A DNA stretch of 64,000 bases, from the IMG/VR virus record IMGVR_UViG_3300045988_176782, positions 1-64,000 of that record, one strand, 5' to 3'. Each line of letters starts with the position of its first letter. The first letter of the stretch is position 1. Origin of the DNA: a virus. This document shows positions 57,397-61,813 of this stretch, one piece after another. Under the pieces are notes generated by a model. That model was not told where the DNA came from. It saw nothing but the letters and a program-made list of their open reading frames with translations, and made no database searches. The translations under genes and the position numbers were made by a program.

Positions 57397-57463
57397 TCAA
57401 TATTTTACTAGAGAGAACATGTTTCCATCATTATCGCGGAGCACATTCAAAGTCATACTAAAT
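57397..57463 (-). CDS. major tail (tube) protein, exon 6 of 6
   Basis: Encodes (T)FSMTLNVLRDNDGNMFSLVKY, ending at TGA 57397-57399, about 40 nt before the terminator. Confidence 0.55.
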
Positions 57464-57602
57464 CATTTTTCTTGCGTTGTATCGCTACTACAACTCTTAT
57501 AATTTCTTATAAGATGAGACTATATCATTCATCAATTTCTTGATTTAACTGCTCTTTCGAGTGCGCTTACACCCTACTTCCTTACGGAATAGTCGTTGAA
57601 CC

Positions 57603-58322
57603 TTAATCCAAAAATTTCCATTTATATCCAAAAGTGGTGATTCGTTTTCCTTCACATACCGCACGAATATTACGACCAGCCGCCGTAGGTTTGCCTAAAG
57701 CTCTTGCCGCCTCATTGGCTGAAGAAAAAGTGGCTATTAAATTTCCTTCTAAATCATATTGTCCAGTTTTTCGTCCGTGTGTTTTCTTGGCATTAACTGG
57801 AATAACACAATTATCTTCTTTATATTTATAAATTGAGTCTTTATAATGCGTAATCTCCCCACGACAATTCTGCGAAACAGCTTGATAGGGTATACCCATT
57901 TTTCTTGCGCATTCTTTTATAGATGCGAAACTTTCAATAAAAATCCCTTCTAAATTATAACGAGAAACTTCACGTTTTAAGCTACAAGTATTAGCTATAT
58001 ATTCTACTGCTCCTCCTGGTTTAATATTATAACCATATTGAGGATTTTGCGTTTTATACAATTGAATATAATATTTTTCTTTATCATTTAAATCTTCATA
58101 AGGGACTTCTTCTAAAATTTCTACAATAAAATTTTCATAACCATACTTTTCAAAAGCTCGCATAAGTGCCGTACAATTTCGATACCCTTTTCCGTCTTTT
58201 CCTGCACGAATTTTTAAAGACTCAATTGTTTTACCGACATATTTTTTATTAGATGGAGAAGTATAGCAATAAATAAAGCCATGATTTTCTTTTGGACGCT
58301 GTTTTAATAATTCTGTATTCAT
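57603..58322 (-). CDS. GIY-YIG homing endonuclease (intron-encoded)
   Basis: GFIYCYTS..KYVGKT..KIRAG motifs plus repeated C-terminal DNA-binding modules (..GYKWKFLD). It contains no TAG. Confidence 0.85.
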   Translation of the reverse strand: MNTELLKQRPKENHGFIYCYTSPSNKKYVGKTIESLKIRAGKDGKGYRNCTALMRAFEKYGYENFIVEILEEVPYEDLNDKEKYYIQLYKTQNPQYGYNIKPGGAVEYIANTCSLKREVSRYNLEGIFIESFASIKECARKMGIPYQAVSQNCRGEITHYKDSIYKYKEDNCVIPVNAKKTHGRKTGQYDLEGNLIATFSSANEAARALGKPTAAGRNIRAVCEGKRITTFGYKWKFLD

Positions 58323-58343
58323 ATTTTCCTTTCTTGGATTCTT

Positions 58344-58452
58344 GGCTGCTGATTGCCCAATCCTATTTTATGTTACTACAAATTTTTATATTTGTCAAAT
58401 TATTACTAATTTGTTGAGTTAAATAGGCTCTAAGGGGATTCCAGCAATTAAG
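58344..58452 (-). repeat. intron-internal repeat, copy A (intron 5)
   Basis: About 109 nt, near-identical to 60667-60774. On the - strand it includes TTGACA-N17-TAACAT and a palindrome ACAAAT..ATTTGT. Confidence 0.7.
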
Positions 58453-58498
58453 CAGTTTTTACTTCCACATTTAAGCCGTGACTTTTCGGATTAGGTTC

Positions 58499-58631
58499 GT
58501 GGAAGGATCGCCTTCTGCCTGCATGGTTAAGGTTACTTCGCTCAACATCTTAGCCTTGTTGATGATGAATTGGAAAGCTTCATCCTTACCAGTGGCTTCA
58601 GAACGAATTAGAGCATCGCCTACAACCTTGT
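58499..58631 (-). CDS. major tail (tube) protein, exon 5 of 6
   Basis: Encodes (Y)KVVGDALIRSEATGKDEAFQFIINKAKMLSEVTLTMQAEGDPS(T). Confidence 0.55.
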
Positions 58632-59749: not shown

Positions 59750-60220
59750 AGGTTCCAGGGAATGTAGAAGGACTAATAACGATTTCAGAAGCGGTGCCTT
59801 CTTCAACTACTTCCTCTTCCCAGAAGAAACGAATCTTAGTGATTTCGGTGGCGGCATCAGCAAAAGGCTTAGTGCCAGTCTTTAAAGTAACAGTGAATTT
59901 CGCGGGATCGCTGCCATCATTAGTTACAGTATCAACTTCGCCAGAGCCACGTAGGCCGTGAGTCATGTCAACCCACTTAAACTTGAAGCCAGCCTTTACA
60001 ACATCCTCACCAGGGAAGTTGTTCTTACCGCCCATAGTCTTCCCATCACCCATTGGGAAGGTAAAGGTTTCACCAACCTTAAAGTTGCGTTCAGCGTTCT
60101 TATAAATAGTAACAGTGTGTTCGTCAGTGGACTTATTATACATCGCACCACCCATGATAATGCGTAGTTCTTCCCAAGATACTACAGCATCTTCTAGGGT
60201 TACATTGATGTCCTTACCAT
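59750..60220 (-). CDS. major tail (tube) protein, exon 4 of 6
   Basis: Carries most of ORF 59670..60155 (..DINVTLEDAVVSWEELRIIMGG...FTVTLKTGTKPF..). Confidence 0.6.
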
Positions 60221-60468
60221 CATTATGTTACGTTTATGCCTTATCATAAACTCTTATAATTTCTTATAAGTTCAGACTATATCTTCATCTCACATGGCCG
60301 TGAGAGGCTGGTGCAGGAGAGCAAGGTTTTCGCTCCCTCTTAGTCGTTGGACCTTCCGTAAATACGGCTCGGCTGCTGATTGTCTTCGGCATTATCCGGT
60401 CAGAGTTCCCAGCAATTCTCCAGCTTTTTAACTTAATGTCGCCATTAAGGGGACCTATGGTAAAATTA
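60221..60468 (-). mobile_element. ORF-less group I intron 3 of the major tail protein gene (248 nt)
   Basis: P1 pairs exon GGGACU with GGUCCC. The complete set of family motifs is present (AATTGCTGGGA, AATCAGCAGCC, GGTCCAACGACTA, GATATAGTCTGAAC, ..CGTAACATAATG). Confidence 0.7.
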
Positions 60469-60493
60469 AGTCCCAAGTGACCAATTTAGGATT
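60469..60493 (-). CDS. major tail (tube) protein, exon 3 of 6 (25-nt micro-exon)
   Basis: AATCCTAAATTGGTCACTTGGGACT encodes NPKLVTWD plus 1 nt and lies between two intron cores. A 13-nt version that starts after ..AAATTG is also in frame. Confidence 0.55.
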
Positions 60494-60813
60494 CATTGTG
60501 TTCCACATAGTTCGCTAATCTATGCGCGGATTTCTCCTGCTTATGATTTCTCATAATGTTCAGACTATATCTTCATCTTTAGATGGGTCTAAAGAGTCCC
60601 CTGTTTCGTGAGGCTTCTCACTACAATTAGTCGTTGAACCTTTCTCTTTTGGCCTTAAGAGATTTGGCTGCTGATTATCCAATCTTGATTTATGTTACTA
60701 CAAATTTTTACATTTGTCAAATTATTACTAATTTGTTGAGTTAATCAAGCTCTAAGGACGTTCCAGCAATTAAGAGGATTTTTCCGTTGAGGCAAACCTA
60801 AGTATGTATGTCA
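60494..60813 (-). mobile_element. ORF-less group I intron 2 of the major tail protein gene (320 nt)
   Basis: 8-bp P1 pairs exon GUUGGGGU with GCCUCAAC. Family core motifs are present. It shares a ~108-nt near-identical segment with intron 5. Confidence 0.7.
60667..60774 (-). repeat. intron-internal repeat, copy B (intron 2)
   Basis: See copy A. Only a handful of substitutions are visible by eye. Confidence 0.7.
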
Positions 60814-60960
60814 ACCCCAACCGCCCTGAGCTGAAACATTTTCAGCAGTAGTTTCTACAGTAGAAACCTTTAGGGTATTTAAATAAAGTACAATATCGCC
60901 GGCTTTGATGTCTCCTTCGTCGGCTAGAGCTTGGAAATAAACGTTAGCTACTTCCTTAAT
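60814..60960 (-). CDS. major tail (tube) protein, exon 2 of 6
   Basis: Encodes IKEVANVYFQALADEGDIKAGDIVLYLNTLKVSTVETTAENVSAQGGWG. It aligns with IKNLERV...ARGGWHN of the paralogue. Confidence 0.6.
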
Positions 60961-61783
60961 CAATTATGTTACGATTGAACCTGTTATCAATCTCTTATAG
61001 TTTCCTATAAGTTCAGACTATATCTTCATCCGATTTCTCGGAGTCTTGCACAGGAGAAGCAGGATTTTCTTCTCGCTTAGTCGTTGAGCTTTCTAAAAAG
61101 TATTTCCAAACATATCCTCCCGCAGTTTTTCGCTTGCCACGAACACATTGCGTAATAGAACTACGACAAGTTCCAGTCTATTCACTTGCCTCACGTTGAG
61201 AATCATAAACTTTTAACAAATGGCCCTCTAAATCATATTGTGCTACTTTTATTTTAGACGCTTCCGCACCTAAAGGCTGAACCTTTTCAACCCATTCTTT
61301 TACACTTTCTTCACGATGTTTCCCAGAAAAACTATGTTTAGTATTTTCAGAATAAGTAGTCCATTCTAAATTATTAACACAATTATTAGATTTATTAAAA
61401 TCTTTATGATTTACAACAGGATAATTATTTGGATTACTAATAAAAGTAGAAGCTATAATTCTATGAGCACGATATAAATGTCGAGATAAAGATACTAATA
61501 AATAACCATCTTTGTCTTTCCATTGTGAAACAAGTTCTTTTGTGCTTTTATCACGAATTTGCCCATTCTCACAAGCTTCATAATTATTATCAACGGGAAC
61601 TGTTTTCCACATTATTTATTGTCTCCTTTTTAGCTTAGTTGCTGATAGCCCATTGTTGCATCTTATTATTTTTTAAACATTCACGCTTGCATTTGCACGC
61701 TTCGTTGTAGTAAATAAGCTTTAGGGCGTTCCAGCAATTCACAAGAATTGTCAGTAAGAATTGCTCCTTACAGTGGCATTTCT
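60961..61783 (-). mobile_element. group I intron 1 of the major tail protein gene, with HNH HEG
   Basis: The 3' end ..CGTAACATAATTG matches the family. P1 is short (exon UGGU with GCCA). An alternative 5' junction 12 nt downstream is also in frame. Confidence 0.6.
61013..61612 (-). CDS. HNH homing endonuclease (intron-encoded) with one in-frame TAG
   Basis: RBS AAAGGAG plus ATG 61612. HNH_3-type motif VVNHKDFNKSNNCVNNLEW. TAG 61178-61180 is followed by a typical C-terminal DNA-binding module (..CVRGKRKTAGGYVWKY). The frame then runs into the intron core to TGA 61013. Confidence 0.7.
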
Positions 61784-61813
61784 ACCATAACGTTCAAAGA
61801 TGTTAATGGCCAT
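61784..61813 (-). CDS. major tail (tube) protein, exon 1 of 6 (10 codons)
   Basis: RBS AAGGAGG plus ATG 61813, encoding MAINIFERYG. The junction YG|IKEV mirrors LGIKNL in the paralogue. Confidence 0.5.

Follow-up and report, generated by a model that had tools for sequence, protein, structure and literature searches.

Group I introns carrying HNH or GIY-YIG endonuclease genes are a classical feature of phage genes. In the td intron of phage T4, the GIY-YIG gene for I-TevI is looped out of helix P6 and has its own ribosome-binding site, an in-frame stop codon lies early in the intron, and the intron is mobile by homing. Genes with several introns, up to three, have been described for the DNA polymerase and TerL of Bastillevirinae (PMC11878797), and several group I introns, again up to three, are attributed to orf142 of Staphylococcus phage Twort (Landthaler & Shub 1999, as cited in PMC11878797). 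Jug phages contain a mean of 18.5 group I introns per genome, with terL in two or three fragments (PMC12880540). Among virion structural genes, group I introns spliced in late expression were found in capsid and tail genes of Cluster J mycobacteriophages (PMC3706429), an intron in the capsid gene of Lactococcus phage Tuc2009 is cited in the same work, and the major capsid gene of the Zeta-group crAss-like phage OLRF01000054 consists of five fragments separated by four insertions (Yutin et al. 2021, PMC7886860). The present analysis concerns 64,000 nucleotides (nt) of viral DNA, positions 1 to 64,000 of IMG/VR record IMGVR_UViG_3300045988_176782 (hereafter the window), in which a tail-tube gene is interrupted five times. 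A literature search, incomplete in its coverage, turned up no phage gene described as having five or more group I introns.

The window very probably contains a functional major tail-tube gene of a gut phage of about 167 kilobases (kb), with a siphovirus-type tail module and TAG read as glutamine in late genes, that has been invaded by five mobile group I introns. This is an extreme case of a known phenomenon and not a new mechanism. As in Twort orf142 and the Bastillevirinae, several IA-type introns occur in one gene, some with open reading frames (ORFs) in peripheral loops, internal exons are small, and for ORF-containing introns Rfam often detects the 3' part alone. In contrast, those genes have at most three introns, belong to replication or packaging and have been shown experimentally to be spliced, whereas here five introns in an 873-nt virion gene are inferred from sequence, in an uncultured phage with TAG recoding.

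OLRF01000054 resembles the present case in that a major structural gene of a 145–192 kb human-gut phage with an alternative code is affected, without recoded stops in structural coding sequence. Three of its four insertions encode group I-type endonuclease domains, and the introns were recognised by protein domains, not by ribozyme structure. The insertions there number four, in a capsid gene, compared with five here, in a tail tube gene within an SPbeta-like long-tail module (YomW/YomV/YomU and tape measure). The T4 td intron shares the features named above with the introns of the window and differs in being single, in residing in a nucleotide-metabolism gene and in having a canonical U.G pair at its splice site. 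The Cluster J and Tuc2009 introns interrupt virion structural genes, as here, with one intron per gene versus five.

Across the tube-gene region the window was identical to its source contig, k119_200862 of ENA ERZ27229731 (167,278 base pairs, bp), which derives from a short-read metagenome assembly (MEGAHIT k119). When the region was compared at the nucleotide level with 50,697 GenBank phage records, just three trivial matches of 33–47 nt resulted, and thus a close cultured relative is absent from them.

The gene occupies 4417 nt of the minus strand (61813 to 57397), of which 873 nt are exon and 3544 nt (80.2%) are intron (Table 1). An earlier note, made from the DNA letters and a list of ORFs, had proposed six exons of these lengths, an in-frame sum of 873 nt, a span of 4417 nt and an intron share of about 80%. 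All of these values were reproduced, and the joined exons translated without a stop codon into 290 amino acids (aa), identical to the protein given in that note.

Table 1. Features of the interrupted tube gene and its neighbour in the window, and intron content of relatives. Bit scores refer to the Rfam model RF00028; P1 and P10 are given as paired over total positions.
Feature	Coordinates	Strand	Description	Evidence
Tube gene	57397..61813	-	YomU_Tube family	exon assembly, PHROG match, homologue alignment
Ribosome-binding site	61823..61829	-	AAGGAGG, 9 nt upstream of ATG at 61813	read from sequence
Exon 1	61784..61813	-	30 nt, MAINIFERYG, final base U	joined directly to exon 2 in L028
Intron 1	60961..61783	-	predicted group I, 823 nt, HNH ORF in P6a loop	3' half 36.4 bits; P1 4/4, P10 3/6; L003 counterpart; helices
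HNH/NUMOD homing endonuclease gene, intron 1	61013..61612	-	199 aa, in-frame TAG 61180-61178	phrog_59, E 2.5e-34
Exon 2	60814..60960	-	147 nt, IKEV...AQGGWG	translation, alignment, relatives' junctions
Intron 2	60494..60813	-	predicted group I, 320 nt, no ORF	78.5 bits; P1 8/8, P10 7/8
Exon 3	60469..60493	-	25-nt micro-exon, NPKLVTWD + 1 nt	translation, alignment, relatives' junctions
Intron 3	60221..60468	-	predicted group I, 248 nt, no ORF	71.9 bits; P1 6/6, P10 8/8
Exon 4	59750..60220	-	471 nt, variable middle of protein	translation, alignment
Intron 4	58632..59749	-	predicted group I, 1118 nt, GIY-YIG-type ORF in P6 loop	3' half 38.9 bits; P1 6/7, P10 7/8; L008 counterpart
GIY-YIG/NUMOD1 homing endonuclease gene, intron 4	58742..59668	-	308 aa, in-frame TAG 59413-59411	phrog and Pfam matches
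Exon 5	58499..58631	-	133 nt, final C is second position of invariant Thr269 codon	translation, alignment, relatives' junctions
Intron 5	57464..58498	-	predicted group I, 1035 nt, GIY-YIG-type ORF in P6a loop	3' half 29.4 bits; P1 7/7, P10 6/8; helices; guide pairing
GIY-YIG/NUMOD homing endonuclease gene, intron 5	57603..58322	-	239 aa, no TAG	phrog_314, E 7.6e-23; NUMOD1, E 5e-11
Exon 6	57397..57463	-	67 nt, ..FSMTLNVLRDNDGNMFSLVKY, stop TGA	translation, alignment, relatives' junctions
Uninterrupted paralogue	56485..57300	-	271 aa, YomU_Tube, one in-frame TAG 56562-56560	phrog_2729, BLASTP
L026			intron at site 1 only; without introns 2-5	
L027			introns at sites 1 and 2; site-2 intron is window intron 2 plus an HNH ORF	
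L028 (OLVS01000055.1)			introns at sites 2, 3, 5; without 1 and 4	
L008 / L033			introns at sites 1, 2, 3, 4; without 5	
L003 / L029 (L029 labelled human gut metagenome)			introns at sites 1, 3, and two different introns near sites 2 and 5	
L001 (partial contig, begins inside intron 2)			introns at site 2 and at a site 18 nt upstream of site 5; without 3, 4	

The spliced protein matched phrog_2729 ('virion structural protein') in one stretch over residues 7–288 (E 2.9e-47). In a collection of 5.8 billion proteins it matched 5350, most of them 265–300 aa long, with 100% query coverage and 58–70% identity. When it was aligned with 16 homologues, the five junctions (ERYG/IKEV, GGWG/NPKL, TWD/YGKD, FPGT/YKVV and DPST/FSMT) all fell inside near-invariant motifs, and no residue was added or missing at any of them. 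Since the junctions are free of gaps and the homologues match over the full length, the exon combination is, as judged from these alignments, correct at the protein level, with an agreement far beyond chance. Exon G+C content was 43%, compared with 33.5% for the window, and no TAG codon was found in the tube coding sequence.

In-frame TGA or TAA stops were located at distances of 10, 0, 13, 26 and 9 codons from the starts of introns 1, 2, 3, 4 and 5, respectively, and the exon phases were 0, 0, 1, 1 and 2. These values bear on the barely conceivable case that the insertions are something other than self-splicing introns, namely inteins, free-standing endonuclease genes between separately translated fragments, or sequences passed by translational bypass. 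Phage genes split by free-standing endonuclease genes do occur, and the DNA polymerase gene of the window is itself split without a detectable ribozyme. However, stops within 0–26 codons of the start of every insertion rule out inteins, the phases make translation as separate fragments impossible, and exons of 25 and 30 nt are too short as polypeptides. Rfam group I matches and guide pairing were moreover found at every insertion, as expected of self-splicing introns.

The group I intron covariance model RF00028 has a curated threshold of 50 bits, which was exceeded by full-model matches of introns 2 and 3. For introns 1, 4 and 5, the 3' halves alone matched the model (E 2.8e-4 for intron 5), because ORF loops of 0.5–0.9 kb in P6 or P6a exceed its span.

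Helix strands were checked by string search, in which several strands of 2–4 nt were misplaced and the longer, unique strands were the reliable ones; P1, P2, P3, P8 and P9.1 were examined separately in each intron. The strands of P3, P4, P6a, P7, P8, P9 and P9.1 were complementary in five of five introns, as were those of P2. The sequences of P3, P8 and the hairpin before P7' varied from intron to intron with pairing kept, and P7 (GACUA/UAGUC) was invariant. MAFFT and RNAalifold were run on ORF-deleted introns, whose 5' regions misalign, worst for intron 3; only P4, P5, P6, P7 and P9 were recovered, with compensatory changes at 12 of 30 pairs. A terminal G was present in every intron.

Within the first 40 nt of each intron, a guide sequence was identified that forms P1 through its 3' part with the last bases of the upstream exon, and P10 through its 5' part with the first bases of the downstream exon. 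Pairing was scored in a window of 6 + 6 nt and compared with 2000 shuffles of the same 60 nt. P1 and P10 together paired at 54 of 60 positions; the shuffles averaged 43.6, and none of the 2000 got as far. For the individual introns 2, 3, 4 and 5, the fractions of shuffles that reached the observed pairing were 0.021, 0.001, 0.017 and 0.0005. In introns 1–4, an exon-final U stood opposite G as a U.G wobble at the 5' splice site.

The proposal of five group I introns was thus borne out by Rfam matches, the helix check, guide pairing and ORF-less counterparts in relatives. On these features all five insertions are group I introns, with splicing itself presumed.

The endonuclease content agreed with the earlier note, with an HNH ORF in intron 1, GIY-YIG-type ORFs in introns 4 and 5, and no ORF in introns 2 and 3. 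For the intron 1 protein, with TAG read as Gln, NUMOD1 and I-HmuI_NUMOD passed the Pfam cut-offs, and HNH_3 scored 22.4–23.1 bits, slightly under its cut-off of 24.8 bits. The GIY-YIG-type ORFs matched phrog_314 and phrog_7168 ('homing endonuclease') with E values of 7.6e-23 and 4.4e-18, and NUMOD1 passed its cut-off; the Pfam GIY-YIG domains remained under theirs (E 0.002–0.004), with a GxIY..YVG motif visible in the sequence. Only with TAG read as Gln did the ORFs of introns 1 and 4 encode full-length endonucleases.

At 61013-61030 in intron 1, and at 2330-2344 in the site-2 intron of L027, the HNH ORFs were seen to run through the 3' ribozyme core. Both finish with ..DEDIV and a stop, encoded by the conserved P7' sequence GAUGAAGAUAUAGUCUGA, and coding and catalytic-core constraints therefore overlap there.

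ORF-less counterparts were available for two of the ORF-containing introns. The site-1 intron of L003 is 300 nt long, 97–98% identical to both flanks of intron 1, and scored 75 bits; the site-4 intron of L008 is 302 nt long, 77–90% identical to the flanks of intron 4, and scored 77.9 bits. For intron 5, no ORF-less copy was found among the relatives, an exact-pattern search for its 5' end in IMG/VR returned nothing, and a search for relatives of its endonuclease gave only homologues of 33–57% identity in unrelated contexts. A metagenome scan located intron 5 at the same site in L028.

The 5' half of intron 5 was 87% identical to intron 2 over 119 nt. This segment is a P5 extension (60664-60782 and 58342-58460, minus strand) common to the two introns despite their different sites and ORF content (none in intron 2, GIY-YIG-type in intron 5). 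The similarity suggests that ribozyme modules may recently have been exchanged or transposed within the tube gene.

Several lines of evidence identified the product as a tail tube protein, as the earlier note had assumed. The family PF27173 (YomU_Tube) was carried by all 120 homologues listed, including P0001 (95% identity); it was taken from annotations precomputed on the homologues, and the spliced protein and its paralogue matched nothing in a Pfam set that did not contain PF27173. A structure was modelled from 51 aligned sequences for the uninterrupted homologue P0002, 70% identical to the tube protein, and not for the spliced protein; the mean predicted local distance difference test score (pLDDT) was 76.

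The comparison with tail-tube folds that the note had suggested was thereby made on P0002. A Foldseek search of the PDB with this model ranked the tail tube protein of Bacillus phage SPR first (8ygm, 8xkn and 9jgh; E 4e-11 to 1e-7, probability 1.00), and the major tail proteins of YSD1, Chi and JBD30 came next, at modest template-modelling (TM) scores of 0.45–0.57. By sequence, the family profile reached the SPR tube protein weakly (E about 9e-4). The SPbeta/SPR tail tube thus shares the fold of the P0002 model and the YomW/YomV/YomU neighbourhood, with just about 15% sequence identity between the SPR protein and the product described here. A literature search for YomU returned only unrelated papers.

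The nearest named phages, with homologues of 31–35% identity, were the 160–170 kb Bacillus siphoviruses FADO, PJN02, PBC2, Thrax3 and Kirov, together with Brevibacillus phage Sundance and Lactococcus phage phiL47. Where annotated, the homologue is called a tail tube or major tail protein. Unlike the six-exon gene, the homologues in these cultured phages match as a single continuous piece, so their tube genes are uninterrupted.

On the source contig, the gene order was YomW, YomV, the interrupted gene, the 271-aa YomU_Tube paralogue and a PhageMin_Tail tape measure. The note had placed the tube gene ahead of the tape measure; its position in the tail module was confirmed, but its immediate downstream neighbour is the paralogue and not the tape measure.

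Paralogy with 56485..57300, also claimed in the note, was supported by BLASTP (E 3e-10) and by matches of both proteins to phrog_2729. Identity was only 24% over the N-terminal ~100 residues. In all relatives examined, whether or not the tube gene was interrupted, a copy of the paralogue came next after it, and the paralogue is thus a constant companion and not a substitute. It was also observed that the paralogue completes its C-terminal strand only by reading through the TAG at 56562-56560, and that it sits between the tube and tape-measure genes, the usual place of tail assembly chaperone genes.

On the spliced frame, the ratio of non-synonymous to synonymous substitution rates (dN/dS) was 0.081 against L008 and 0.106 against L003, with dS about 0.24. 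A dN/dS of about 0.1 shows that the tube gene is not a pseudogene. The note had named decay to a pseudogene, with the paralogue as the only tube protein, as the outcome that would overturn its reading; purifying selection and the presence of the paralogue beside uninterrupted copies speak to the contrary.

Relatives were drawn from IMG/VR and metagenome collections, those with 94–97% protein identity being regarded as close. Each intron of the window was precisely missing from at least one close relative. Intron 2 was absent in L026, intron 3 precisely absent in L001, L026 and L027, intron 4 absent in L001, L003, L026, L027 and L028, and intron 5 absent in L008, L026 and L027. At the junctions, intron-less DNA equalled the spliced window sequence base for base: exon 3/exon 4 and exon 4/exon 5 in L001, exon 5/exon 6 in L008, and exon 1/exon 2 and exon 2/exon 3 in L004, L006 and L007. 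ORF-containing and ORF-less forms of the same intron were known at sites 1, 2 and 4.

Close relatives had different introns at two nearby positions: site 2' (after GGCGGU), which precedes site 2 by 6 nt, and a site after CAGGCU that precedes site 5 by 18 nt. These introns lie at 4718-5731 and 6585-7371 in L003 and at 688-1474 in L001. Sites 2', 2 and 3 all lie within 32 nt, in the most conserved motif of the gene (GGWGNPKLVTWDYGKD). More distant clades (45–49% identity; L010-L013, L034 and L036) carried two or three introns, some at further sites, and in some of these loci a micro-exon stood between two introns in the same motif. In L004-L007, L009 and L016, the tube gene was uninterrupted. 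Counting all loci, at least eight distinct insertion sites were found in the family, and no single allele examined had more than the five introns of the window. RF00028 matches were also frequent beyond the tube gene, with 23 above threshold in the 82 kb that flank it in L010-L013, L003 and L008.

Several points weigh against a functional gene with five spliced introns. The three ORF-containing introns score below the Rfam threshold in the window. In intron 1, P1 has 4 bp and P10 has 3 bp, which alone is indistinguishable from chance, and P1 of intron 4 contains one A/C mismatch. Intron 5 is backed by its structure, its similarity to intron 2 and its guide pairing, without a full-length covariance score, and it has a C-G pair in place of the canonical U.G at its 5' splice site; in the Tetrahymena ribozyme, a change from U.G to C-G lowers activity. 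The contig was assembled from short reads of a population polymorphic for the introns, and splicing and expression of the gene are inferred from DNA alone.

The assembly history raises the quite unlikely case of a chimera, in which real genomes hold at most three or four introns, as in L008, L003 and L028, and different haplotypes were stitched into a five-intron consensus. The relatives of 94–97% identity indeed carry the subsets 1,2,3,4; 1,2',3,5'; 2,3,5; 1,2; and 1 (5' here being the site upstream of site 5), and the set of the window is the union of the L008-type and L028-type sets. However, two database contigs, both of the 50–200 kb class, encode exactly these proteins with identical surroundings and five-intron arrangement. 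Homing would also readily yield such a recombinant naturally, and a four-intron allele would leave intact the conclusion that a functional tube gene was invaded by multiple introns.

The splice site of intron 5 was considered separately. It follows C, after the second base of the invariant Thr269 codon, and because this codon is ACN, U is impossible at that position. The guide GUGGAAG pairs fully with CUUCCAC, giving C-G at the cleavage site, and 12 of 12 positions paired in the scoring window, which 0.05% of shuffles matched. A search for an alternative 5' splice site that would give U.G found none that keeps the reading frame and the terminal G. The intron 5 of L028 has the same C. An engineered Anabaena intron tolerates C or U opposite G at this position (PMC12355055), and the C-G splice site of intron 5 is thus unusual yet plausible.

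This site, together with the weak P1/P10 pairing of intron 1, is what speaks for a decaying or poorly expressed gene, in which one or more introns, likeliest 5 or 1, splice badly and the paralogue or a co-infecting phage supplies the tube protein. Such a state is very unlikely, since none of the 290 codons is disrupted, in a genome with 33.5% G+C, dN/dS is 0.08–0.11, all ribozyme helices are intact, and the independent contig L028 also carries intron 5 with this C. The paralogue, in addition, is only distantly similar over its N-terminal region and accompanies uninterrupted tube genes.

On several sequence features, the late genes of the minus strand use TAG as a sense codon for Gln. Neither this recoding, nor the C-G splice site of intron 5, nor the number of insertion sites in the family figured in the earlier note. 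When TAG was left open, the stretch from 37946 to 56445 on the minus strand contained frames of 695 aa (11 TAG), 3324 aa (37), 563 aa (9) and 1467 aa (15), and the plus-strand replication genes had nearly no in-frame TAG. NUMOD1 of the intron 1 HNH protein spans the TAG, and the full Pfam model was matched only with read-through; the position of the window's TAG is taken by a normal Gln codon in the L027 orthologue, which is 96% identical. A search of the 64-kb window for transfer RNAs found none, a TAG suppressor included, so the suppressor must lie elsewhere.

Other genes of the window were also interrupted. An ORF-less group I intron (65.5 bits) at 54030-54361 on the minus strand splits the tape measure gene (PF10145 on the source contig); the flanks of this intron, 54361-56445 and 44058-54029, would give about 4000 aa when joined, unusually long for a tape measure. 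On the plus strand, a 281-aa endonuclease ORF at 25690-26535 (phrog_4645) divides the DNA polymerase gene (phrog_405) into 22932-25493 (profile positions 46-792) and 26578-28071 (792-1090), and Rfam gave no group I match at E <= 0.01 in this interruption within 22932-28071. A group I match at 36327-36570 on the plus strand scored 49.6 bits, below the 50-bit threshold. It follows a second phrog_4645 ORF (35320-36414), which is preceded by a partial dUTPase-like ORF (34754-35341, plus strand). The stretch 34754-36570 probably holds a further endonuclease-bearing intron in an early gene.

Scans of genome collections yielded no host. A single-protein query gave no match, and an alignment query found relatives solely in gut bins of metagenome-assembled genomes with inconsistent taxonomy (Clostridia, Methanobrevibacter, Melainabacteria and Bacteroidales), which probably reflects binning errors.

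In the proposed mechanism, the late transcript would carry all six exons, and each intron would fold into a group I ribozyme with helices P1–P9.1. The guide would pair with the last 4–8 nt of the upstream exon in P1 and the first 3–8 nt of the downstream exon in P10, and two guanosine-initiated transesterifications would excise each intron and ligate the exons. Five such events would yield the 873-nt messenger RNA for the 290-aa tube protein, and the early TGA and TAA stops would halt ribosomes entering unspliced RNA. The three endonuclease genes, looped out of P6 or P6a and each with a predicted ribosome-binding site of its own, would supply enzymes that, if active, cut intron-less alleles in co-infection, upon which the intron would be copied in. 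Homing of this kind would leave each intron present in some near-identical relatives and missing from others.

A more far-reaching version, to which somewhat less than an even chance is given, holds that the five-intron allele is real and efficiently expressed, that intron 5, lying within an invariant Thr codon, naturally splices at a Watson-Crick C-G pair in place of the near-universal U.G wobble, that translation of two of the three endonucleases is gated by TAG-to-Gln recoding, and that GGWGNPKLVTWDYGKD is a hot spot for homing by multiple elements. If so, the TAG-containing endonucleases would drive homing only late in infection, while suppression operates, at least three different introns would use the GGWGNPKLVTWDYGKD stretch, all within 32 nt, and the tube gene would be, as far as could be found, the most fragmented phage protein-coding gene described.

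Standard gene calling missed the tube gene; for the source contig it returned only a 161-aa fragment without a domain match. In intron-rich recoded gut phages, core structural genes would therefore seem to be missing as long as annotation takes no account of splicing and TAG recoding. Intron 5 serves as a natural experiment on whether a group I intron can do without the U.G wobble at its cleavage site, and the optional introns at eight or more sites form a natural system for homing dynamics, intron gain and loss, and decay of endonuclease ORFs. Phage genomes are pressed to stay compact, and late infection demands tube protein in great quantity. Here introns make up 80% of the tube gene, and each messenger RNA would require five correct ribozyme reactions, with exons as short as 25 and 30 nt to be joined; such a gene gauges the load of mobile elements that an essential, highly expressed gene may carry.

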